The translations under genes were made by a program, and so were the position numbers. DNA of 50,436 bases from Candidatus Omnitrophota bacterium (GTDB lineage Bacteria > Omnitrophota > Gorgyraeia > Gygaellales > Profunditerraquicolaceae): contig JAKQWZ010000016.1 in assembly GCA_029561735.1 (NCBI GenBank), positions 1 to 50,436 of the forward strand. The letters run 5' to 3'. Below, in pieces: positions 7,361 to 33,461 of this stretch (the stretch's first letter is position 1; each line of letters opens with the position of its first letter). The notes below the pieces were generated by a model. That model was not told where the DNA came from. It searched no databases and was given only the letters and a program-made list of their open reading frames with translations.

Positions 7361-7666
7361 TCAACTTAATCTGGCATCTTTGATAGCAATGCCATCCGGA
7401 AGCTGTTTTTGAAGGCTTGATATAAAATCTTCAGGCCGGATAAGCCGGTTGACTCCGGCTGTTGCTTCTTCGTGGCTGCTTTCAACACCTAATTTTAACG
7501 CTTTTTTTATGCTGAATTTAGGATGCGGGCTGAATCCTTCTGTAAGCTTTAACGGAATTTCTGCGCGTCGCATTGCCCGGGTAAAAAGCCGCATCAGGTC
7601 TAAATGCGATATATACTTAATATTCCCGGTTTTTGTAAATACGAAATCTATTTTAAAAAAATTCAT
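7361..7666 (-). CDS. TIGR03936/DUF2344 radical-SAM-linked family protein (short form)
   Basis: FTKTGNIKYISHLDLMRLF.RA.RRA..P...TEGFSPHPK...AL.LGVES signature. Confidence 0.85.
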   Translation of the reverse strand: MNFFKIDFVFTKTGNIKYISHLDLMRLFTRAMRRAEIPLKLTEGFSPHPKFSIKKALKLGVESSHEEATAGVNRLIRPEDFISSLQKQLPDGIAIKDARLS

Positions 7667-9471
7667 CTATTTTGCTTCTTTGTTGTAACTTTTATCGCGC
7701 CTTTCTGCACTGACTGTTCAAGGGCAAGAGACGCAAGCCTTGAGATCTCTTCAGGGGTAAGGTCATTATCCCTGACAATCCGGGCAGTAATAAAGATCAG
7801 TAAATCCTGTTTCTGGATATCATCTACCTGCCTTCTAAATGCCGCGCCTAAAAAGGGTATTTTGCTTAAATAGGGAATACCGATAGTTTCTTTAGACTTG
7901 ACATCTTTTAAGAGCCCGCCCAAAACCACGGTCTCGCCGTCCTTCATAAGTATCTGGGTTTGCGCTTCACGCACATCAATAATAGGGTAATCTACCGTAG
8001 AGGTGATGGCTGTAGTGCCTGTGCCCGAAACATTTCTTGCCGTAATGCTTGAGGTGCTGGAAGTGACGCTGGGATGTATTATCATGTTGATATAGCCGCC
8101 CTCATCGCTTACCTGCGGCACAACATTAAGTCTGATGCCGATTTCCTGATAATAATCTAAATTTTGCGTCTGCGTCGGCCCTTCGTTCTGCGAACCTGCA
8201 GTTACCGTCGAGCTCAAAATAGGCGTATGATAACCGACAAGAATAGCTGCCTCCTGATTATCCAGCGTCATAACCCGCGGCGCCGATAAAGTATTTGTGT
8301 GGGCATCCTGCTCTAAAGCATGCAGTATAACTTCAAATTGGGCTCCGCTTAATTTCTTAAACAAAATTTCCAAGCCCGCTTTATAAGGATAGGTACCCGG
8401 AAAAGTTGTAGTCCCTTCAATCGGGTTAAAAGCTCCGGGAGTAAATTCTGAGCCTAAATTCCTGCCGGCTATAGTCTTAGAGCCGGCAGCATTAAGGTCA
8501 AGGTCTCCCGGCGCTGTTGCATAACCGGAAGCTCCGGAAGAGCCAGTTCCCCAGTCAAACCCGATATCGGTTAATTTATCCCTGTTGACCTCCATAATCC
8601 GTGTTTCAATCAGGACCTGCTTGGGTTTTTTATCTATTTGAGGCAAAATTACGTTTTTAATCCGGTCTAAATTAGAAGCAGTATCAGTTATAACCAGTGT
8701 CTTTGATTTTACTGACGGCTCAAATTCGGCTTTGCGCGAAACCAGCTCCCCTGCGGCATTTCTTTCAATAGCGATTGTCTCCTGTTTCATAACATCGCCT
8801 TTTTCTTTTTCCAATATGGTCCCTGCCTTGGTGTCTTTGCCGATCTTAAATGAACCGAACTGCCAGCCTTTTTGCCCGCGGCTGTATAAGACAGATATTT
8901 TTCCCCGCGGCGAAAGCAAGGGGATCAGTATTTTTTCAGCATCTTGCGCGTCTAAAAATTTTAATTTTACGATCTCTGTCATCAAAGGCTCTTCGGCCTG
9001 GATTTTAGCGATGTTTTCCATGCGGGTTACCAGGATAATGTTGCCTTGCCTCTCTGAAGCATAACCGTATGATTTTAAAAGCACGCTTAAAGCCGTCTCC
9101 CATGGCACATCAGCCATACGGATTGTAACATTGCCGATAACATCAGGGGTCGTAACAATATTAACACCGGATTTAAAAGCAATTATCTTAAGGACATTGC
9201 GGATATCTGCGTCTTTAAAATCCATAGTGACGTTCTGCGATGAAGACAGGCTTTGCGGCACAGGCGCCGCCTGAAAAGCTGTTTCCGAATTTTCTTCCGC
9301 AATAGAAGGCTCAGGAACGCTGTTCTGAACCGGGGCTTCAGGTGACGCAGCCGGAGAGCTTTCCTTAACATCATCCTGTGCAATCGCACGCACTGATGAA
9401 AAAATATTAAACCCGGCTAACCCTAAGATTAACAAAGCACAAATTGATACCCTGGGTAAATGTATTTTCAC
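7663..9471 (-). CDS. pilQ: Type IV pilus secretin (PilQ-like), no AMIN domains
   Basis: Signal peptide, N0 domain (MDFKDADIRNVL...VPWETAL), QVLIETRIMEV, LSAPRVMTLDNQEA, GETVVLGGL, IPYLSKIPFLG; last gene of pilMNOPQ; GTG start with GGAGG. Confidence 0.9.
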   Translation of the reverse strand: MKIHLPRVSICALLILGLAGFNIFSSVRAIAQDDVKESSPAASPEAPVQNSVPEPSIAEENSETAFQAAPVPQSLSSSQNVTMDFKDADIRNVLKIIAFKSGVNIVTTPDVIGNVTIRMADVPWETALSVLLKSYGYASERQGNIILVTRMENIAKIQAEEPLMTEIVKLKFLDAQDAEKILIPLLSPRGKISVLYSRGQKGWQFGSFKIGKDTKAGTILEKEKGDVMKQETIAIERNAAGELVSRKAEFEPSVKSKTLVITDTASNLDRIKNVILPQIDKKPKQVLIETRIMEVNRDKLTDIGFDWGTGSSGASGYATAPGDLDLNAAGSKTIAGRNLGSEFTPGAFNPIEGTTTFPGTYPYKAGLEILFKKLSGAQFEVILHALEQDAHTNTLSAPRVMTLDNQEAAILVGYHTPILSSTVTAGSQNEGPTQTQNLDYYQEIGIRLNVVPQVSDEGGYINMIIHPSVTSSTSSITARNVSGTGTTAITSTVDYPIIDVREAQTQILMKDGETVVLGGLLKDVKSKETIGIPYLSKIPFLGAAFRRQVDDIQKQDLLIFITARIVRDNDLTPEEISRLASLALEQSVQKGAIKVTTKKQNR

Positions 9472-18020: not shown

Positions 18021-20228
18021 TTACGGATTTACCTGCGAGCCCGACTGAGGCTCTTTATAGCTCTGGTCAAATCCAAACTCAAGCTCTGGGAACGCCTTCA
18101 TCCTGAAAATCAGCCAGATAGTATTTCCTTCCCATTTCTTCCGGTTAAAAGTAAAATCCATTTGCCAGCAGTGCAGGTCGCGCGAAATAGTATACTCCTG
18201 CTCTCTTATGCCTCTGGGCAGCCCAGGCTGATGCCCGACATTCCTGCGCTGATACATTGAAAACCGCCACTTAGGATTAAGCCGCCAATTAAGATTAAAC
18301 GTTATTTCATTGCCGCCTTTTAATTGATACCTCTGGCCCAGCCCCACAGAGCGCTCCCTGCCCAAATCAAAATAAAGGTCATAATTAACGTCATTAAAGC
18401 TGTTGTACCCAACCGAATCCCGGGCGCCGGAATGCTTATAGTTTGCAGTTGACTCAAGCCTCATCCAGGAAAAAGGCAGCACCTTTAACTGGAAATAAAA
18501 ATCCTGAAAACTACTGCCTCTTTTTTCGCCGGTTTTCGGTTTAATATTATAACTTGTGGTCACCAGAAAATCGACTAAGTCAACACTTACCCCTTTTCTT
18601 TTGGTCTGCAGCTTATTCTGCAGCCCTATACTGACATAATGGCTGCCGGTGAGCGCATCCAGCCCGTCAAGCTGCTTCAGGTTACTGGCCGGTACCGTAG
18701 GGGTATGATTGTAATAATAATTTGCCGTCGGAGTAATAATATGCCTGAGGGCGTTGATATCAAGCCCGAAAATATTAGTTTTAACGTTAAAAACACGGTA
18801 GAATTTCGTGCTGATATCTGCTCCGGCTTTAAACATAGTGCGCACTACGTGAGATTGCCCGTTTGCTCCTTTGTCATAAACTGTCTCCTGGCTGCCTACA
18901 TTAGGCCTGAATTCAAAAATTGATACTTTTAGCGGATAAGAAAACTGGTTTACAGTATCAAAACGCGATACTGTTATATCTTTAGGCGATGCCTTGGAAT
19001 TATACACGCCCGAAGTCGTAGTGCTATTAAAATAAAAACGGCTGTTACCCATGCGCACATTAGGCATAGTGTATTTTAATTCAGGCATTTTGTTTTGCTG
19101 GTCAAACCAGTGGTTATTTCTCACCTGCATCAAAACGTCCAAAGCGGAATAGCTATAGGACTGGTGGAATAACGCATAGGTCAAAGGCTGCTCATCCCTC
19201 TCGTATTCTCTCTGGAAATAATCCCTTAAAAAACTGATTCCCGGGCCTTTTATTTTATTCTTCTGGTCGCTTATCTGATAATATTCCCCAACAATGTTGG
19301 TGCGCTCATTGATATCCCATTTATGCCTTAAGCGGGTAAAATATCTCTGGTAGTGTTTCGGGTCCGCAGGCAGACGGGTAGCTTCATCCTGCCTCTCCTG
19401 CGTATAATAAACTTTGAAGTCGCCTTTTCCGAAGAATTCCGTATCATAGTTAGCCAGAACGCCTCCGGCAGTGCCCAGCTTTGACCTGTAATCAAGCATA
19501 AGCAGGCCTTTTAAATTTTTGTTCAGGTTATACCGGTATGCCGACAATACGTACGCTCCCCAATCTTTGCTGCTTCCCGGGCTGATCGGCAGGCGCATCC
19601 ACGGATCATCAAAATTATGGTTATACTCCGGCATATAAAGCACAGGCGCTTTATTGACATACATAGTTGTATCAGTAAGGTTTACTTTTTTACCCGGGAA
19701 AAAATTAACCCTTCCGGTCATTAATTTATAATGCGGATCATCAAAGCTGCAGGTAGAAACATAACTGCGGCGGGCGATAAATTCATCAGGGCTGACTTTT
19801 TCCATCCTTTCGGCTTTACCAAAAAAAGGATTGGACATAAATTTAGCGTCATAGATAATCCCCGTTTTAGTAATAAAATTATAGGTAATCTTCTGGCCTT
19901 CAATAATGCCCTGTTTCTCGGCAAGGCGGACATTTCCTTCGGCGCGGCACTCTTTGGTCTGGGTGTTTACAACCAGTTTCTGACAGGTCAGCTTGGTATC
20001 TTTGAATATTATCTCTACATTGCCGGTTGCAATAGCTTCATTACTGGAAGCATCAAATTCAACAGTATCCCCGTTCAGGGTGATTGGCTGGGGAACTGGC
20101 TTGCTTACCGGCTTTTCTTCCTCTGCAGGGCAATTAAACGGGAAAATCCCGGATACTGCCATAATAAGAAAAAATATAACCAGTATTTTCCGGGAAAAGG
20201 CAAATATATTATATTTAATCTGCGGCAT
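18021..20228 (-). CDS. lptD: LPS-assembly protein LptD (OstA jellyroll plus beta-barrel)
   Basis: N-terminal hydrophobic signal, OstA-like ATGNVEI..AEGNVRL, STC..DDPHY, aromatic-rich barrel strands, C-terminal RDLHCW. Confidence 0.85.
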   Translation of the reverse strand: MPQIKYNIFAFSRKILVIFFLIMAVSGIFPFNCPAEEEKPVSKPVPQPITLNGDTVEFDASSNEAIATGNVEIIFKDTKLTCQKLVVNTQTKECRAEGNVRLAEKQGIIEGQKITYNFITKTGIIYDAKFMSNPFFGKAERMEKVSPDEFIARRSYVSTCSFDDPHYKLMTGRVNFFPGKKVNLTDTTMYVNKAPVLYMPEYNHNFDDPWMRLPISPGSSKDWGAYVLSAYRYNLNKNLKGLLMLDYRSKLGTAGGVLANYDTEFFGKGDFKVYYTQERQDEATRLPADPKHYQRYFTRLRHKWDINERTNIVGEYYQISDQKNKIKGPGISFLRDYFQREYERDEQPLTYALFHQSYSYSALDVLMQVRNNHWFDQQNKMPELKYTMPNVRMGNSRFYFNSTTTSGVYNSKASPKDITVSRFDTVNQFSYPLKVSIFEFRPNVGSQETVYDKGANGQSHVVRTMFKAGADISTKFYRVFNVKTNIFGLDINALRHIITPTANYYYNHTPTVPASNLKQLDGLDALTGSHYVSIGLQNKLQTKRKGVSVDLVDFLVTTSYNIKPKTGEKRGSSFQDFYFQLKVLPFSWMRLESTANYKHSGARDSVGYNSFNDVNYDLYFDLGRERSVGLGQRYQLKGGNEITFNLNWRLNPKWRFSMYQRRNVGHQPGLPRGIREQEYTISRDLHCWQMDFTFNRKKWEGNTIWLIFRMKAFPELEFGFDQSYKEPQSGSQVNP

Positions 20229-27454: not shown

Positions 27455-27709
27455 TTATTTTTTATGCGGGCAGGAATTACAGCCGTCCTTTGTTTTTGAA
27501 CATGATGGCGGGGCTACGGATGCAGGCTGCTTACGATAATCCGTAGCATAAAAACCCGAGCCTTTAAATATAAGGCCTGAGCCGCTGCTTATCAGGCGCT
27601 TGACCTTCTTATGGCATCTAGGGCACTTCTCCAGCGGTTTATCAGTCATCCTTTGAAAAGCTTCAAACTGATTTCCGCAATGCGGGCATTCATATTCATA
27701 AGTCGGCAT
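27455..27709 (-). CDS. FmdB-family zinc-ribbon protein
   Basis: MPTYEYECPHC...CPRC...FKGSGFYATDY with extra C-terminal Cys cluster; AAGGAG SD. Confidence 0.92.
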   Translation of the reverse strand: MPTYEYECPHCGNQFEAFQRMTDKPLEKCPRCHKKVKRLISSGSGLIFKGSGFYATDYRKQPASVAPPSCSKTKDGCNSCPHKK

Positions 27710-27725
27710 AAACTATACTCCTTAA

Positions 27726-28886
27726 TTATCTGAATTTTTTCTTTATCTTTTCACTAAAACTTTCCATGCCTGCCTGTTCTCCGCTGGCCCGGGCAAATTC
27801 TTCAATTAACCTGCGCTGTTCGGAATTAAGGCGGGACGGAATATCCACATTGACCCTGACTAATTCATCTCCGGGCTCTGCGCCATGGACATCAGGCATC
27901 CCTTTGCTTTTTAAGCGAAAAACCTTTCCCGGCTGGGTTCCCGCAGGGATCTTCATCCTGACATGGCCGCTTAAAGTAGGCACATCCACTTCAGACCCCA
28001 AAACAGCTTTAGAAAGGCTGATATTAATTTCCGTAAGTATATCATTTCCGTCACGATGATACAAGGGGTTTGGCCTGACCTCAACTATCACATAAAGGTC
28101 CCCTCTACCGGCAGTACCTGCTTCGCCTTCGCCCCTTACGCGTAAACTGGAGCCGTTATCAACTCCCTGAGGGATTTTAACCTTTATTTTACGGGTAACT
28201 TTTTCCCGGCCCTGGCCGTTACATTCAGGGCAAGGTGTCTGAATAATCATGCCCTCGCCGCCGCATCTGTGGCAAGTCTGGACCATCTGAAAGAAGCCAT
28301 TGGAGGCAACACTGCGGCCTGCCCCTTTACACTGAGGACAGGTAATCTTCTTGCTGCCCGGTTTTGCGCCGCTGCCCGAGCACATAGAACAAGTCTCATA
28401 ACGCGGGACACTAATAGTCATTTCAGTGCCGCGAAAAGCTTCTTCTAAAGACAAAGAAACTGATATCTCCAAATCCCTTCCCCGGCGCTGCCTGCCAGCC
28501 TGCCTTGACCGGCCGGACCTGCCTCCAAAATCAAACCCCAGATCAGAAAAAATCTCATCAAATATCCCGCCGCCCAACCCGTAATCACCCATACCCTGAA
28601 AAACACTGTTAAAATCAGCATTCTTAAAGATATCTTCCTGTGCATAGCGCTGATCAATTCCGGAATGCCCGTATTGATCGTATAATGCTCGCTTCTGGCT
28701 GTCAGAAAGTACGGCATAGGCTTCTGAAATTTCTTTAAATTTTTCTTCGGCTTCCTTTTTTTGTTCGTGCGGGACGCGGTCAGGGTGATAGCGCAAAGCC
28801 AACTCGCGATAAGATTTCCTGATCTCATCCAGAGAAGAACTCTTCTTTACCCCAAGAATTTCATAATAGTCGCGCTTAGTAGTCAC
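27726..28886 (-). CDS. dnaJ: Chaperone DnaJ
   Basis: J domain with HPD, G/F region, four CxxCxGxG repeats; GTG start overlaps the dnaK stop. Confidence 0.97.
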
Positions 28887-30802
28887 TATTTTTTATCGTC
28901 TTCTTCCTTAAACTCCGCATCAATCACATCATCTTTCTTTTCCGAGCCGCCTTCTTGCTTTGCCCCTTGCCCTTCATCCTTCGCGCCTGCCTGACCTTGC
29001 TGCTGGCCCTGTTGTTTAGCAGATGCCTGCTTGTATATTTCTTCGGCTAATTTATGCGAGGCCTTGGTTAATTCATCCATACATTTTTTTATACTGGCAA
29101 TATTCTTATCTTTGATTGCGGCCTTCAGGTCGTTTAATTTCGCCTCAATATCGCCGCGCTCTGACTGGCTGACTTTCTCGCCATAGTCTTTCAGGGATTT
29201 TTCAGTAGCATAGGCAAGATTATCCGCCTGATTAACCAGCTCTACTTCTTCTTTGCGCTTCGCATCTTCAGTGGCGAATTTCTCTGCATTCTTCACCATA
29301 TTATCAATTTCTTCTTTTGAAAGCTTGTGCGGAGCGGTTATTTTAATAGACTGCTCTTTTCCGGTGCCCAGGTCTTTAGCTGAAACGTGGACTATTCCGT
29401 TGGCGTCAATATCAAAGGCGACTTCAATCTGCGGGACTCCACGCGGGGCCGCAGGAATACCCACCAAATCAAATCTGCCAAGCTCTACGTTATCGTCTGC
29501 CATCGGGCGTTCGCCTTGCAGTACCCGGATTGTAACCGCGGTCTGATTATCGGCTGCAGTGGAAAATACCTGGCTTTTTCTGGTAGGTATGGTGGTATTC
29601 CTGTCAATCAGTTTTGTGCTGACTCCGCCGAGAGTTTCAATGCCCAGCGACAAAGGAGTAACATCCAGAAGAAGCACATCTTTGACATCACCTTTAATAA
29701 TCGCCGCTTGTATGGCTGCACCTAAAGCCACGCATTCCATAGGGTCAACGCCTCGTTCAATCTTTTTGCCAAAATAATCCTCAACGAATTTCTGGACTAT
29801 AGGCATGCGCGTAGGCCCGCCCACCATAATAATCTTATCAATGCCCTTGTCCGCAAACTCAATCCCTTCTTTACTAAAGGAATCTTTAGCATCCTTAAGC
29901 GCTCTTTCTAAGGGAGCGCGGCATCTTTCAATGATCGGGGAAACCAGTTCTTCCAATTTTGCCCGGTTTATAGGCATAGTTAGATGCTTCGGCCCGGTAG
30001 CATCAGCAGTAATAAAAGGAAGGTTGATATCCGTTGAGAGAGTGCTGGAAAGCTCAACTTTGGCTTTTTCCGCTGCTTCGCGCAGGCGCTGCATTGCCAT
30101 CTTATCATTTTTCAGGTCAATACCCGTATCGCGTTTAAACTGGTTGGCGATATAATCAATAAGCACATTGTCCATGTCTGTGCCGCCCAGCTGAGTATCG
30201 CCGCTGGTTGCCATTACTTTAAAGCCGCCTTCTTTCCACATTTCCATGATTGTAACGTCAAGGGTGCCGCCGCCGAAATCAAAAACAAGGATCTTTAATT
30301 CTTTTCCGGCTTTTTCCAAACCATAAGCAAGGCATGCCGCTGTCGGTTCATTGATTATCCTTAAGACCTTTAACCCGGCTATCTCGCCTGCATCCTTAGT
30401 TGCGGTCCTTTGGTTGTCGTCAAAATATGCCGGACAGGTTATAACCACTTCTTCAACCTTGTCCCCCAGATACGCCTCGGCATCCTGTTTTATTTTCTGC
30501 AGTATAAATGCAGATATCTGCTGAGGAGTGTATTCTTTACCGTAGATTTTAAAAAGATGATCAGTGCCCATCTTACGCTTAGCAGCCTGAATCGTCCCTT
30601 CAGCATTTATTGCCGCCTGGCGCCTTGCCGGCTCCCCTACAAGCTTCTGTCCGTCTTTAGTAAAAGCGACATACGAAGGAAACGCCTTTCCCGAAGCCAC
30701 CCCTGCACCTTCTGCCGAAGGGATTATTACCGGCCTACCGCCTTCCATAACAGCTGCTGCAGAATTTGAAGTACCCAAATCAATTCCTATAACCTTAGCC
30801 AT
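28886..30802 (-). CDS. dnaK: Chaperone DnaK (Hsp70)
   Basis: [54 protein letters not shown] tail. Confidence 0.98.
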
Positions 30803-30816
30803 GCTGCACCTCCTGT

Positions 30817-31368
30817 TTATTTTTTGTCAGTATTTCTTTTAGAAACCTTTACCTTTGCAGTCCTTATTACCCGGTCATTCATTAAATAGCCTTTTTGCAA
30901 CTCCTCCACAATCGTATGCTCAGGCCTAGCATCATCATCAACCTGCATAAGCGCCTCATGAAAATTAGGGTCAAAGATCTTTCCCTGTGCTTCAATAGGC
31001 TTGACTCCGTAATTTTTAAGCATATCGTAGAGATGCGCCAGGATCATCTCCACCCCTTTTAAGAACACCGGCAGGTCTTCCTGCTTTGACTCTGCCAAAG
31101 AAACTGCCCGCTCAAGGTCATCAAGTATATTCAGCAATTCAACGATTATGCCTTCATTGGCAAACCTGATAAAATCCTGCCTGTCTTTCTCTGTGCGCTT
31201 ACGGTTATTTTCCAAATCTGCCTGCATGCGCAGCATCTTATCCCAATACTCGTTGGCCTTTTGCGCTGATTCCTTAAGCTCAAGATACTCGCTTTCTTTG
31301 ATAGTTACGACCTTGGAATTATTCGCCTGATGTGCATGATGATTTTTTGGATTTTCTGTATTCGGCAT
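30817..31368 (-). CDS. grpE: Nucleotide exchange factor GrpE
   Basis: [24 protein letters not shown] and QKGY...RVIRTAKV motifs. Confidence 0.96.
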
Positions 31369-31369
31369 A

Positions 31370-32104
31370 TTAAATATCCTTTAATGTAATTGACAGGACA
31401 TCCGAGGCATATTCCAAAGTGGGAATAATGTGCCCGTATTCCATTCGGGTCGGGCCTAAAACAGCCAGCCTGCCCAAAGGCTTATCTTTTATATAATAGG
31501 TTGAAACAACCAGCGAACAATCCTCTATTTCCCTGCACTCAAGTTCCTCTCCAATAAGAATATTAATCTTCTTCTCAAAATCCTGATTTATAATTTCAAG
31601 GAATTTCTGCTTCTCCTCCAGTAATTTAATCAGGAGCCTGATACGTTTGGCATCGTGGAATTCCGGCTGGGCAAGAATAAAACTTAAACCCTTATACAAA
31701 AACCTGTCCTGGCGCTCAAGGTCCGAGACTATACTGGCGTAATGGGTAATCTGCGAAACAAGATTGGAAGTAACATCCAGTATCTCATCTATCTGGCCGG
31801 TGCCTTTTTTAAGCCGGCTGGAAATTGATTCTTTATCCGCATCCAGCAGTTCCATCTGGTCCGCAAGATAATTCACATAAAAACGGTAGCCTTTTTGCGT
31901 GGGGATCCTGCCTCCCGAAGTATAGGGATGCGTCAGATACCCTGCATCTTCCAGCTCCGAAAAGATATTCCTGATTGTAGCGCTACTTAAATTAAAGCTG
32001 CGGCTCATATCCTGCGACGAAACCGGTTCGGCATCCTTAATATAACGGCTGATCGTCTTGACCAGGACCGCATTTCTGCGCGCAGAATGATCAATATTTT
32101 TCAC
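31370..32104 (-). CDS. hrcA: Heat-inducible transcription repressor HrcA (short, 244 aa)
   Basis: wHTH EPVSS...SSATIRN..LE..GYL.HPYTSGGRIPT.KGYR; QPEF; C-terminal VLGPTRMEY; CIRCE immediately upstream. Confidence 0.92.
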   Translation of the reverse strand: MKNIDHSARRNAVLVKTISRYIKDAEPVSSQDMSRSFNLSSATIRNIFSELEDAGYLTHPYTSGGRIPTQKGYRFYVNYLADQMELLDADKESISSRLKKGTGQIDEILDVTSNLVSQITHYASIVSDLERQDRFLYKGLSFILAQPEFHDAKRIRLLIKLLEEKQKFLEIINQDFEKKINILIGEELECREIEDCSLVVSTYYIKDKPLGRLAVLGPTRMEYGHIIPTLEYASDVLSITLKDI

Positions 32105-32122: not shown

Positions 32123-32149
32123 TTAGCACTCTCACCTTAAGAGTGCGAA
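32123..32149. promoter_or_regulatory. CIRCE operator (HrcA binding site)
   Basis: TTAGCACTC-N9-GAGTGCGAA, one mismatch to the consensus TTAGCACTC-N9-GAGTGCTAA; lies between the promoter and the hrcA SD. Confidence 0.95.
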
Positions 32150-32198: not shown

Positions 32199-33461
32199 TC
32201 AATTAATTTTTATTATATCTTTATCCTGCATAATCTTATCCGCTAAAAGACGGGAAATAGTTAATTTTATTTCAATCCCTTTATCAGTATACTGTATATC
32301 ATCAACCCTTGCCTGGCGGTAAAACAGCCCTACCAGGTCCATCCGCGAATGCGGAATATGGATATGCAGTTTTTGAGTACGCTCTCCGAACGCATCAGCG
32401 ATCCGGTTTAACAGTAAATCAAGGCTAATGCCTTTTTTTGCTGAAATGGCAATTGAATTGGGAAAATCCTCTATAAGCCTGCTGATCCATGCCTGATCGT
32501 CTATCAGGTCAATCTTATTTAACGCAATTATGGACGGCTTCTGGCCAACACCAAGCTCATCAAGGACTACCTGCACTGACTTGGCATAATCATGGACCCT
32601 TGGGTTGCTGGCATCCAGAACATGGATAAGCAGGTCTGATCCCACTGTTTCTTCCAAAGTGGCCTTAAAAGCTTCAATCAAGTTATGCGGAAGGTCATGT
32701 AAAAAACCTACAGTATCCGAAAGAACAGCATTTTCTCCGTCAGGCAAAGTTATGCTTTTTGACAAAGGATCCAAAGTAGTAAAAAGGCTGTTCTCAACAA
32801 TCTGGCCGGCGCGCGTAAGGGCATTCAAAAGAGTAGATTTTCCAGCATTAGTATAACCTACCAAAGCAACCTGCGGGATAGAATTTTCTTTGCGTCTTTT
32901 ACGTATCGTATCCCGGTGTTGAGACATGCTTTTAAGGTCATTTTTTAATTTATCCAGCTTCTCCCTTATCCGCCTGCGGTCAATTTCCAACGCCTGCTCA
33001 CCCGGGCCGCTGGTGCCTATGCCGCCTCCGGTACGCGAAAGAATAAGCCCTTTTCCGATCAAGCGGGGCAGTAAATACTGCAATTGAGCAAGCTCAACCT
33101 GAAGCTTTCCTTCCGGGGATTTAGCCCTGCGGGCAAAAATGTCCAGAATCAGCTGCGTGCGGTCTATGGTCTTTTTTCCGATTACATCTTCAAGGTTTCG
33201 CTGCTGGGTGCCGGAAAGTTCGCAACTGAATATTACCACATCTAAATTCTCTTCCTGGCATATAAAAGCGATTTCTTCGGCCTTTCCCCTGCCGATCATA
33301 AAATTCGGGGTAGGCCTGTCCCTGACGCAGCTGATATGGTCAACCACTTCAACAGAACAAGCGCCGGAAAGTTCTTCCAGCTCAACTGCGGTATCCTCTA
33401 TTGACCAGCCTTCTTTTTTATCAACAGTAAAACCAACTGTAACTAAGAGAGCTCTTTCCAT
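32199..33461 (-). CDS. hflX: Ribosome-splitting GTPase HflX
   Basis: LILDIFARRA, GGIGT.GPGE, GYTNAGKST, LFTTLDP, DTVGF and NKID motifs. Confidence 0.96.
   Translation of the reverse strand: MERALLVTVGFTVDKKEGWSIEDTAVELEELSGACSVEVVDHISCVRDRPTPNFMIGRGKAEEIAFICQEENLDVVIFSCELSGTQQRNLEDVIGKKTIDRTQLILDIFARRAKSPEGKLQVELAQLQYLLPRLIGKGLILSRTGGGIGTSGPGEQALEIDRRRIREKLDKLKNDLKSMSQHRDTIRKRRKENSIPQVALVGYTNAGKSTLLNALTRAGQIVENSLFTTLDPLSKSITLPDGENAVLSDTVGFLHDLPHNLIEAFKATLEETVGSDLLIHVLDASNPRVHDYAKSVQVVLDELGVGQKPSIIALNKIDLIDDQAWISRLIEDFPNSIAISAKKGISLDLLLNRIADAFGERTQKLHIHIPHSRMDLVGLFYRQARVDDIQYTDKGIEIKLTISRLLADKIMQDKDIIKIN

Follow-up and report, generated by a model that had tools for sequence, protein, structure and literature searches.

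We analyzed a stretch of 50,436 nucleotides (below, the window) from an Omnitrophota MAG. It carries the genes of the DnaK chaperone system as one operon, in the order CIRCE-hrcA-grpE-dnaK-dnaJ. The features of the locus, listed by rising coordinate, are the following (S-type denotes the DnaK subfamily defined below, and canonical denotes the DnaKs outside it, those of the E. coli type and those that group with them).

27455..27709, minus strand: small Zn-ribbon protein, the conserved last gene of the cluster (Pfam Zn_ribbon_8, 63.8 bits)
27726..28886, minus strand: dnaJ, type I with Zn-finger domain, native Omnitrophota type (Pfam DnaJ, DnaJ_CXXCXGXG and DnaJ_C)
28886..30802, minus strand: dnaK, S-type subfamily, 638 aa (ORF call, profile searches, structure alignments, tree and motif counts)
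29726..29746, minus strand: DPMECVA motif, subfamily signature, residues 353-359 (DPME[CAS]VA in 64/74 S-type and 0/118 canonical sequences)
29801..29821, minus strand: GGPTRMP motif, subfamily signature, residues 328-334 (69/74 S-type and 0/118 canonical sequences)
30560..30565, minus strand: site at which an insert-bearing DnaK/Hsp70 has 21-23 further residues, residues 80-81 (structure alignment and spacing)
30692..30706, minus strand: 5-residue insertion AGVAS, residues 33-37, directly after Gly32 (a gap in every solved DnaK shown)
30817..31368, minus strand: grpE nucleotide-exchange factor, native Omnitrophota type (Pfam GrpE, 169.9 bits)
31370..32104, minus strand: hrcA repressor, short form, 244 aa (Pfam HrcA, 109.7 bits; TIGR00331, 215.5 bits, cut-off 197.2)
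32123..32149, no strand: CIRCE inverted repeat and putative HrcA operator, located upstream of hrcA (1 mismatch to the 9-N9-9 consensus; chance expectation 0.01 matches)
32199..33461, minus strand: hflX GTPase, upstream synteny anchor (Pfam GTP-bdg_N, GTP-bdg_M, MMR_HSR1 and HflX_C)

The operon and its host genome

A preliminary description of this DNA had placed the DnaK in a bacterial HrcA/CIRCE system, and the single-mismatch CIRCE element and an hrcA product scoring above the TIGR00331 cut-off bear this out. HrcA is predicted to bind CIRCE and to repress the operon until heat shock. CIRCE-like sites were found upstream of 16/20 S-type and 7/11 canonical operons of the same class, and in 16/21 of the insert-less bacterial loci. 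Among Elusimicrobiota loci, CIRCE was found in 1/27, an uninformative count, as most of these loci, like those with 1.5-kb flanks, end before the hrcA promoter. In many related loci, whichever their DnaK type, the gene hflX lies before hrcA, and the Zn-ribbon gene follows dnaJ in S-type and canonical loci as well as in those of other Omnitrophota classes.

The genome encodes a secretin (positions 7663-9471 of the window, 148.3 bits) and, elsewhere, BamA (225.5 bits) and LpxC (302.8 bits), which together support an outer membrane. The preliminary description had drawn the same conclusion from a secretin and an lptD gene; the secretin stands, and the lptD assignment is weakly supported. The corresponding open reading frame (18021-20228) had no Pfam match at 1e-5 and gave only sub-threshold NCBIfam matches, to a CT351-family barrel and of the LptA/LptC-like kind. 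The Pfam LptD model found nothing in the genome, and it should be noted that this model matches only 2/14 control genomes.

If the contig were chimeric or contaminated, the dnaK would be foreign to this genome, an explanation to which we assign negligible probability. We found no support for it. The same gene lies in the same operon in 20/21 of the S-type Omnitrophota genomes fetched, and the arrangement recurs in 4 NCBI-labelled loci; three further contigs encode proteins that are 99-100% identical; and GC content (0.445-0.472, compared to a range of 0.407-0.472 across the window) shows no anomaly. Moreover, this DnaK is the only full-length Hsp70 of its genome, which is 82% complete; a search for a second, canonical dnaK, as the preliminary description had proposed, found none in that assembly.

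The DnaK of the window belongs to a distinct subfamily

The dnaK product matches Pfam HSP70 (PF00012) over profile positions 1-598 of 599, i.e., at full length, with 738.7 bits, and exceeds the cut-offs of TIGR02350 (870.4 bits, cut-off 822.55) and NF001413 (879.2 bits, cut-off 648). The gene probably encodes a working Hsp70 chaperone, with normal function predicted in concert with the native GrpE and DnaJ. The preliminary description was attached to positions 30517-30802, i.e., to residues 1-95, and had stated that the protein lacks the segment of about 23 residues typical of Gram-negative DnaKs. This is indeed the case: the insert of 21-23 residues found in the N-terminal ATPase domain of the canonical Gram-negative class is absent. 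The alignment to the insert-less solved DnaKs 6w6e_I and 2v7y_A passes without a gap across [19 protein letters not shown]. That to the mitochondrial Hsp70 9qid_A is interrupted at query residue 80, where residues 94-116 of the chain, 23 in all, have no counterpart in the window DnaK. The spacing from GIDLGT to NEPTA is 145 in the window DnaK versus 161-165 in insert-bearing DnaKs.

Residues 33-37 are extra in the window DnaK and have a counterpart in no solved DnaK aligned. The segment 31-43, [13 protein letters not shown], spans this insertion between AEG and GK-x-FPS. In E. coli DnaK, residues 28-33 of the nucleotide-binding domain are described as forming an interface with the GrpE beta-bundle (PMC10825016); the insertion, which follows Gly32, thus falls in the GrpE-contacting loop of that protein. 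The motif GTSNSAA occupies residues 10-16. The unusual N-terminus, GGPTRMP and DPMECVA, which the preliminary description had assigned to one and the same type, are thus all present, and neither GGPTRMP nor DPME[CAS]VA occurs in any of the canonical sequences compared.

The window DnaK is a member of a distinct subfamily, which we call S-type, set apart from all canonical DnaKs. The split received support of 100/100 in the careful tree and SH-aLRT values of 99 to 100 in quick trees (all trees were computed under LG+G4), from an alignment in which motif and indel columns were retained. S-type proteins lack the 23-residue insert, have 4-5 residues added after Gly32, and carry GTSNSAA, GGPTRMP and DPMECVA. 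Motifs were counted over the 192 full-length DnaKs collected (74 S-type and 118 canonical). The insertion of 4-5 residues is present in 74/74 S-type and 0/118 canonical sequences, although this feature also helped define the class; GTSNSAA was found in 73/74 S-type sequences and recorded in no canonical one.

The subfamily occurs in archaea (Thermoplasmatota, Nitrososphaerota, Bathyarchaeia, Methanobacterium and Micrarchaeota) and in bacteria: in 31/31 of the Elusimicrobiota sequences checked, 7/151 Patescibacteria and 42/117 Omnitrophota. None of the 61 Elusimicrobiota genomes has a match above 765 bits, and all 31 of the sequences read are S-type. The likeness to DnaKs of Thermoplasmatales and Thaumarchaeota, which the preliminary description had pointed out, was confirmed: the second-best representative of the 50%-identity clusters, P0122 (794 bits, 60% identity), counts Ferroplasma, Acidiplasma, Picrophilus and Thermoplasma among its named relatives, and the named Nitrososphaerota loci share the same DnaK features. 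The label "monoderm-type", used in the same description, is imprecise. The missing insert is shared with Firmicutes and Actinobacteria, in which the order hrcA-grpE-dnaK-dnaJ with CIRCE is typical as well; their DnaKs, however, cluster with the canonical ones, and the Gly32 insertion, GGPTRMP and DPMECVA are found in 0/22 of them. We rejected a Firmicutes/Actinobacteria-type identity, since the window DnaK lies across the 100/100 split from the DnaKs of Bacillota, Actinomycetota and Armatimonadota. Branching with canonical diderm DnaKs, named in the preliminary description as the result that would speak against it, was not seen, the same split separating the two.

Two DnaK types share one operon slot in Omnitrophota

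DnaK was found in 117/121 Omnitrophota genomes. In 65 of the 117 it scores 876-923 bits, the canonical range, and the insert was present in 32/32 of the sequences read; in another 42 it scores 663-766 bits, and 22/22 of those read, the window included, are S-type. The remaining DnaKs are 3 probably canonical proteins and 7 fragments. The phylum as a whole is thus not an S-type lineage. The S-type was found in 8/8 genomes of the window's family, in 32/48 other genomes of its class and in 2/65 genomes of other classes, and both types are represented in the phylum, in a single class and even in a single family-level group. No genome among the 117 with DnaK combines the two; G022 has a second copy, which is HscA-like. 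In most Omnitrophota S-type proteins the insertion is 5 residues long (AGVAS or TTVGG).

Within the window's class, canonical and S-type dnaK occupy one and the same operon slot. The order hflX-hrcA-grpE-dnaK-dnaJ-Zn-ribbon was found with S-type dnaK in loci L113-L133 and with canonical dnaK in L084, L086, L087, L098, L105 and L138. Other Omnitrophota classes have hrcA-grpE-dnaJ together and dnaK elsewhere.

The flanking genes do not follow the DnaK type. In the trees of HrcA, GrpE and DnaJ, which are quick trees, and in that of their concatenate, sequences group by Omnitrophota family and not by DnaK type, as they do in the RpoB tree. GrpE proteins from S-type and canonical Omnitrophota form one group (SH-aLRT 96); DnaJ and HrcA proteins of the two types are intermixed and sorted by family, and the S-type genome G053 stands beside canonical genomes of family f3 in both the HrcA and the DnaJ tree. 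On the flank tree at least 5 changes of DnaK type are needed. Two operons are recombinant: in G053, grpE and dnaK are f6-like, and in G099, dnaK and dnaJ are f1-like. The grouping of the flanks by family, together with these two operons, indicates that the replacement affected only dnaK, in an operon that is otherwise native.

Origin of the S-type gene

In the careful tree, Omnitrophota and Elusimicrobiota S-type DnaKs form one clade (98/95), within which the Omnitrophota sequences are monophyletic (100/99) and sister to the sampled Elusimicrobiota (85/82), rather than nested among them; this position does not pin down a donor. The three S-type groups form a trichotomy in the DnaK tree. The AU test did not reject a monophyletic archaeal S-type (p-AU 0.11) and gave a borderline value (p-AU 0.04) for a single clade of all bacterial S-type sequences; neither outcome settles the direction of transfer. 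Within the insert-bearing clade, the canonical DnaKs of Omnitrophota come out as a single group (98/96 in the careful tree, 91 in the quick tree). Divergence of the S-type in place, from a canonical Omnitrophota DnaK, was rejected: forcing the two Omnitrophota types into one group costs 334 lnL (p-AU 5e-6).

In the RpoB tree, the basal Omnitrophota families f24, f23 and f17 are canonical, as is the crown of the other main clade (15/15), and 5 changes of DnaK type are needed. The S-type thus looks acquired, and the canonical type was probably ancestral in Omnitrophota; this polarity is derived from one marker, RpoB, in a quick LG+G4 tree with one deep node at SH-aLRT 83. The topology of the S-type DnaK tree disagrees with that of RpoB: f1 is placed with f2 and f8, and f22, a member of a different class, falls inside the window's class. 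Polarizing by co-chaperones was tried and rejected as unstable. Archaeal DnaJ was placed inside Omnitrophota DnaJ with SH-aLRT 98, and this placement was gone when Elusimicrobiota, Patescibacteria and other Omnitrophota classes were added, the archaeal sequences then standing elsewhere with weak support (71). In the GrpE tree (192 columns), one archaeal sequence lies inside the Omnitrophota group and the others have no firm placement.

The explanation that we favor, with a probability of roughly 0.65, is that a foreign S-type dnaK replaced the native canonical gene in the operon, came from a relative of Elusimicrobiota, and then spread by recombination. The S-type would be a foreign allele in Omnitrophota: it would have displaced the insert-bearing dnaK of the phylum at the same place in the CIRCE/HrcA-controlled hrcA-grpE-dnaK-dnaJ operon, while the co-chaperone and repressor genes remained native. 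Entry would have been into one Omnitrophota class, most likely from a relative of Elusimicrobiota, a phylum with the S-type in every genome sampled, and the later spread among Omnitrophota lineages would have proceeded by recombination within the conserved operon. The sister position of the Elusimicrobiota sequences points to such an Elusimicrobiota-like donor.

The same clade could also reflect common descent, since Elusimicrobia and Omnitrophica appear as sibling phyla in a published tree of 16 ribosomal proteins (bootstrap 89). The S-type might then be ancestral to an Elusimicrobiota-Omnitrophota stock and have been kept by the lineage of the window, with the canonical type later entering Omnitrophota and taking its place in most lineages, and with archaea as recipients from the stock. 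The 98/95 clade mirrors the published sibling relationship; every Elusimicrobiota sequence read is S-type and lies within hrcA-grpE-dnaK(-dnaJ); the separation of dnaK from hrcA-grpE-dnaJ in other classes is expected if the in-operon copy was lost after a second had arrived; archaeal S-type monophyly is not rejected; and published work derives archaeal DnaK from bacteria, naming no donor for this group. We nevertheless consider this history unlikely: the basal families f24, f23 and f17 are canonical, the canonical Omnitrophota DnaKs are monophyletic, as expected of vertical inheritance, the S-type tree is at odds with RpoB as a proxy for the species, at least 6 type changes are required on the RpoB tree versus 5 with a canonical root, and the nesting of archaeal DnaJ in Omnitrophota vanished on addition of taxa. 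The related proposal in the preliminary description, that this lineage is related to the donor of the archaeal clade, fares in a similar way: the archaeal monophyly test and the trichotomy of the S-type groups leave room for it, whereas the basal canonical lineages oppose simple retention of an ancestral, donor-like gene.

It is improbable that an early Omnitrophota ancestor carried two dnaK copies, one of each type, with different lineages losing one or the other. Each type is monophyletic within Omnitrophota, and the types are mutually exclusive and patchy, with 5 changes on either the flank or the RpoB tree, as such losses could produce; however, not one of the 117 genomes holds both, a single operon slot is common to both types, and the conflict between the S-type tree and RpoB, together with the two recombinant operons, speaks for exchange. 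About as improbable is a direct acquisition of a grpE-dnaK-dnaJ set from an archaeon and its placement under a bacterial repressor. Many S-type lineages are archaeal, and a published tree nests the DnaK of Elusimicrobium minutum among archaea, which was read as a transfer from archaea to bacteria (PMC3564930). On our trees, however, the sister group is Elusimicrobiota and no archaeal group, GrpE, DnaJ and HrcA are native and common to canonical-type relatives, and these relatives have the same operon order with CIRCE. The archaeal kinship claimed in the preliminary description therefore holds at the level of the subfamily, shared with Thermoplasmatales and Nitrososphaerota, and not as a direct take-over; its suggestion that the genes were re-acquired together from archaea is contradicted by the flanking genes, which mix by family across DnaK types and leave only dnaK as foreign.

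Relation to known systems

The kind of case is already known, with Elusimicrobium as the published precedent: the DnaK of Elusimicrobium minutum is reported to lack the insert of 21-23 residues (Gupta 2011, PMC3133647) and to cluster with those of archaea (Petitjean et al. 2012, PMC3564930). A text search of the literature combining Omnitrophota, DnaK and Elusimicrobia found, in the portions of text covered, no treatment of DnaK or Hsp70, and the strings Omnitroph, Elusimicrob, HrcA and insert are all absent from a 2026 survey of the archaeal KJE system. Compared to the window DnaK, the DnaKs of Elusimicrobiota are alike in being insert-less, in their S-type motifs and in the order hrcA-grpE-dnaK, and are sister to its clade; they differ in an insertion of 4 residues, where most Omnitrophota copies have 5, and in that Elusimicrobiota have the S-type in every sampled genome, whereas Omnitrophota alternate between S-type and canonical. 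Archaeal S-type DnaKs share about 60% identity (Thermoplasmatales representative), the insertion after AEG, GTSNSAA, GGPTRMP, DPMECVA and the order grpE-dnaK-dnaJ; unlike the window gene, they belong to other branches of the subfamily, and their loci have an adjacent hrcA in 0/10 cases and CIRCE in 0/9 of those with enough upstream sequence to be scanned. The canonical, E. coli-type DnaKs share the domain plan and the co-chaperones of the window DnaK and, within the window's class, also its operon slot under CIRCE/HrcA, but they carry the 21-23-residue insert, lack the Gly32 insertion, read GG[ST]TR[IM]P and NPDE[AV]VA at the signature positions, and lie across the 100/100 split.

The Hsp70 insert has been described as a rare and stable marker that parts the classical Gram-negative phyla from others (Gupta 2011, PMC3133647). 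Both insert states are found here at one chromosomal position within a phylum, a class and a family, so that in this case the marker tracks gene exchange and not descent. Given that the S-type is present in every Elusimicrobiota genome sampled, the published case of a single Elusimicrobium as recipient from archaea deserves to be reopened, and the question of which lineage donated the main archaeal DnaK group becomes open to testing. It is conceivable, though doubtful, that the S-type arose in the bacterial stock of Elusimicrobiota and that the DnaK systems of Thermoplasmatota, Nitrososphaerota, Bathyarchaeia, Methanobacteriales and Micrarchaeota descend from it. If true, this would reverse the published archaea-to-Elusimicrobium polarity, would identify, for the first time, the bacterial source of the largest group of archaeal DnaKs, and would make the gene of the window a close relative of the donor allele. 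On the favored reading, a central and highly connected chaperone can be replaced alone, with its GrpE, DnaJ and HrcA partners staying native. The locus is thereby a natural test case for co-chaperone compatibility, the incoming DnaK having additional residues in what is, in E. coli, the GrpE-contacting loop.

The heat-shock operon of the window

The genes around dnaK were identified with Pfam models, and hrcA and dnaK also scored above the curated NCBIfam cut-offs:

32199-33461, minus strand, hflX
32123-32149, CIRCE repeat with 1 mismatch (chance expectation, 0.01 matches)
31370-32104, minus strand, hrcA
30817-31368, minus strand, grpE
28886-30802, minus strand, dnaK (638 aa)
27726-28886, minus strand, dnaJ
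27455-27709, minus strand, small Zn-ribbon gene

The GC content near dnaK (0.445-0.472) is inside the range of the window (0.407-0.472). The corresponding genome is a 1.23-Mb assembly, 82% complete, in which no second full-length Hsp70 was detected (the sole other match scored 45.6 bits). The best 120 database relatives of this DnaK are 85-100% identical to it, and their organism-naming sources are all Candidatus Omnitrophota or Omnitrophica, with the single exception of a "bacterium". It should be noted that HrcA (31370-32104) has just 244 aa, compared to 338 positions in the family model, which it matches in two stretches, and Pfam recognizes its winged-helix part weakly (22.8 bits); in related Omnitrophota, HrcA frames are about 250-350 aa long.

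The diderm nature of the host, claimed in the preliminary description, is backed by a secretin encoded in the window and, in other parts of the genome, by BamA and LpxC. The lptD call made there is less secure: the 735-aa ORF at 18021-20228, possibly a divergent LptD, belongs to no Pfam family, and its matches to LptA/LptC-like domains and to the CT351 family of chlamydial outer-membrane barrels stay below threshold. An insert-less DnaK in an outer-membrane bacterium is already known from Elusimicrobium, and the Omnitrophota gene is a further case; Gupta (2011; PMC3133647) counts Elusimicrobium, Negativicutes, Fusobacteria, Synergistetes and Thermotogae among the bacteria that have an outer membrane and lack the Hsp70 insert.

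A separate DnaK subfamily

Insert-less solved DnaKs align unbroken with the window DnaK around residue 80, and the alignment of mitochondrial Hsp70 skips 23 chain residues near this position. None of the solved DnaKs shown has an equivalent of residues 33-37, and the motifs GTSNSAA, GGPTRMP and DPMECVA are present. We denote as S-type the DnaKs without the 23-residue insert that carry a 4-5-residue insertion after Gly32 and, typically, the signature motifs, and as canonical all others, either insert-bearing or insert-less. GGPTRMP was found in 69 of 74 S-type and DPME[CAS]VA in 64 of 74 S-type sequences, with neither motif in 118 canonical DnaKs. The solved-structure alignments and the motif check confirm what had been noticed originally, i.e., the missing 23-residue segment, GGPTRMP and DPMECVA.

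In a search of 1.84 billion cluster representatives with the window DnaK, the best two, P0121 (883.5 bits) and P0122 (794.0 bits), were followed by a fused four-stretch match (683.0 bits) and by the next full-length match, P0124 (662.9 bits). Both P0121 and P0122 lack the insert and have the 4-5-residue insertion after AEG, two features shared by 8 more among the 150 representatives listed; the named relatives of P0122 are Ferroplasma, Acidiplasma, Picrophilus, Thermoplasma and Thermoplasmatota. Scanning one genome per species gave at least 600 matching stretches; 599 were confirmed, and the best 80 of these 599 comprised 18 S-type, 22 insert-less canonical and 40 insert-bearing DnaKs. Among these best 80, ten S-type loci are archaeal (Bathyarchaeia, Methanobacterium, Micrarchaeota, Nitrososphaerota and Methanomethylophilaceae) and eight are labelled bacterial (Elusimicrobiales, four Omnitrophota, one Patescibacteria, one "Planctomycetales" and one Ectothiorhodospiraceae).

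Every tree separated the S-type sequences from canonical DnaKs of all kinds, Bacillota and Actinomycetota included, with SH-aLRT of 99 and 100 in quick trees and 100/100 in a careful tree (60 rows, LG+G4, ultrafast bootstrap/SH-aLRT); therefore, the label "monoderm-type", applied to this DnaK before, does not fit.

Two bacterial-labelled loci deserve comment. The "uncultured Planctomycetales bacterium" record (L016) has a single DnaK, and its DnaK, HrcA, GrpE and DnaJ are all nested among Omnitrophota, beside family-level group f18, so that its taxonomic label or binning looks doubtful. The Ectothiorhodospiraceae MAG (L018, genome G124; 4.1 Mb, gammaproteobacterial) has a canonical DnaK (883 bits) and an HscA-like copy. 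In addition, an S-type dnaK-dnaJ pair, accompanied by neither grpE nor hrcA, lies on a 17-kb contig. This pair branches among archaeal S-type sequences, beside Bathyarchaeia in quick trees, and reflects either recent acquisition or mis-binning of the contig.

Two DnaK types in one operon slot

DnaK was present in 117 of 121 sampled Omnitrophota genomes. Scored with the Pfam model, 65 of the 117 reached 876-923 bits, with the insert in all 32 sequences read, and 42 reached 663-766 bits, with S-type features in all 22 read, the window counted; the remainder were three probably canonical DnaKs and seven fragments. Both types occurred together in none of the 117 genomes (in G022, the additional copy resembles HscA). 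The S-type is found in all 8 genomes of the window's family, in 32 of 48 in the rest of the class, and in only 2 of 65 in other classes; within the window's class, canonical DnaK occurs in groups f3 (5 of 6 genomes), f9, f10 and f17. The same pattern holds in Patescibacteria, with 7 S-type genomes out of 151, the next 23 sequences read being insert-bearing (22) or truncated (1), and the DnaJ of S-type and insert-bearing members mixed in the tree. Our literature search, within the sources available, returned no published description of such alternation in one phylum and one operon slot; the paper that it retrieved on these phyla mentions neither DnaK nor Hsp70 in the text covered.

The order hflX-hrcA-grpE-dnaK-dnaJ-Zn-ribbon is common to S-type and canonical genomes of the window's class, with upstream CIRCE-like sites at 16/20 S-type and 7/11 canonical loci. 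Other Omnitrophota classes have hrcA-grpE-dnaJ(-Zn-ribbon) and a canonical dnaK elsewhere; at loci L204-L207 of these classes, there is no dnaK between grpE and dnaJ, and the canonical dnaK stands alone in another part of the genome. The ten archaeal S-type loci among the best 80 of 599 are arranged as grpE-dnaK(-dnaJ), with an adjacent hrcA in none of the ten and CIRCE in none of the nine that could be scanned.

In the HrcA, GrpE and DnaJ trees and their concatenate, Omnitrophota are sorted by family and not by DnaK type, and the flank tree requires at least five changes of type. G053, the only S-type genome in f3, falls inside f3 by RpoB, HrcA and DnaJ, and its GrpE (95) and DnaK (95/78) pair with f6. 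G099 (f19) joins f2/f4 by RpoB, HrcA and GrpE, and f1 by DnaK and DnaJ. These two genomes and the family-wise flank trees therefore indicate that dnaK, at times with one neighbor, was exchanged by recombination within a conserved operon. The operon of G053 (L118) is thus a recombinant, the 5 other sampled f3 genomes being canonical, and that of G099 (L131) is a second one, with different breakpoints. Of the original interpretation, an archaeal-type DnaK under bacterial control, the archaeal kinship of DnaK and the bacterial HrcA/CIRCE context are retained; the co-chaperones and HrcA follow the Omnitrophota family.

Source of the S-type allele

In the careful tree, Omnitrophota S-type sequences form a single clade (100/99), sister to Elusimicrobiota (98/95); together, they make a trichotomy with the main archaeal group (90/92) and with a group of Patescibacteria, P0121 and Methanomethylophilaceae (93/92). 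Canonical Omnitrophota DnaKs form one group (98/96) within the insert-bearing clade, and a single clade of both Omnitrophota types was rejected (p-AU 5e-6). All 61 Elusimicrobiota genomes have DnaK, with no score above 765 bits, and all 31 sequences read were S-type, arranged hrcA-grpE-dnaK(-dnaJ); we found no published description of this uniformity in the literature accessible to our search.

As a species proxy, we used a single-marker tree, that of RpoB, built from 55 rows by quick search and with one deep node at 83. Here, Omnitrophota are monophyletic (95), and f24, at their base, is canonical; f22 is the sole exception in an otherwise canonical main clade, the basal f17 of the window's class is canonical, and five changes of DnaK type are required. 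The S-type DnaK tree conflicts with RpoB: it joins f1 to f2 and f8 and places f22 inside the window's class. The most economical account is that canonical DnaK would be the ancestral state of Omnitrophota, that the S-type would have entered from an Elusimicrobiota-like source, and that it would later have spread by recombination. We assign a probability of about 0.65 to replacement of the native dnaK in place by an Elusimicrobiota-like S-type allele. Common descent may instead account for the S-type in both phyla, because a published tree of 16 ribosomal proteins makes Elusimicrobia sibling to Desantisbacteria and Omnitrophica (bootstrap 89).

As to whether bacteria or archaea had the S-type earlier, archaeal monophyly was not rejected (p-AU 0.11) and bacterial monophyly was borderline (p-AU 0.04). 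According to Petitjean et al. (2012; PMC3564930), the DnaK of Elusimicrobium minutum is nested among archaeal sequences, which was read as archaea-to-bacteria transfer, and the bacterial donors of archaeal groups could not be named. The available part of a 2026 survey of the archaeal KJE system does not mention Omnitrophota, Elusimicrobia, HrcA or an insert.

Two observations concern DnaJ. Nesting of archaeal DnaJ within Omnitrophota (98 in an early tree) vanished with added taxa and was set aside. The DnaJ of one Elusimicrobiota subgroup (L143-L149, 6 rows) is nested in an Omnitrophota DnaJ group (99), with two other Elusimicrobiota DnaJs elsewhere; this hints that Elusimicrobiota and Omnitrophota have exchanged further heat-shock genes.

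Predicted function and GrpE contact

Judging by its family, the window DnaK is probably the general Hsp70 of the cell, working with native GrpE and DnaJ, and HrcA at CIRCE would repress the operon until heat shock. E. coli DnaK (2kho_A, 1-601) aligns to residues 1-588 of the window DnaK and starts in register, which puts the insertion behind Gly32. NBD segment 28-33 is, according to PMC10825016, an interface with the GrpE beta-bundle, and the insertion after Gly32 (E. coli numbering) is therefore located at this GrpE-contacting segment. The change in the contact loop seems to be tolerated, because closely related GrpEs serve both S-type and canonical DnaKs.
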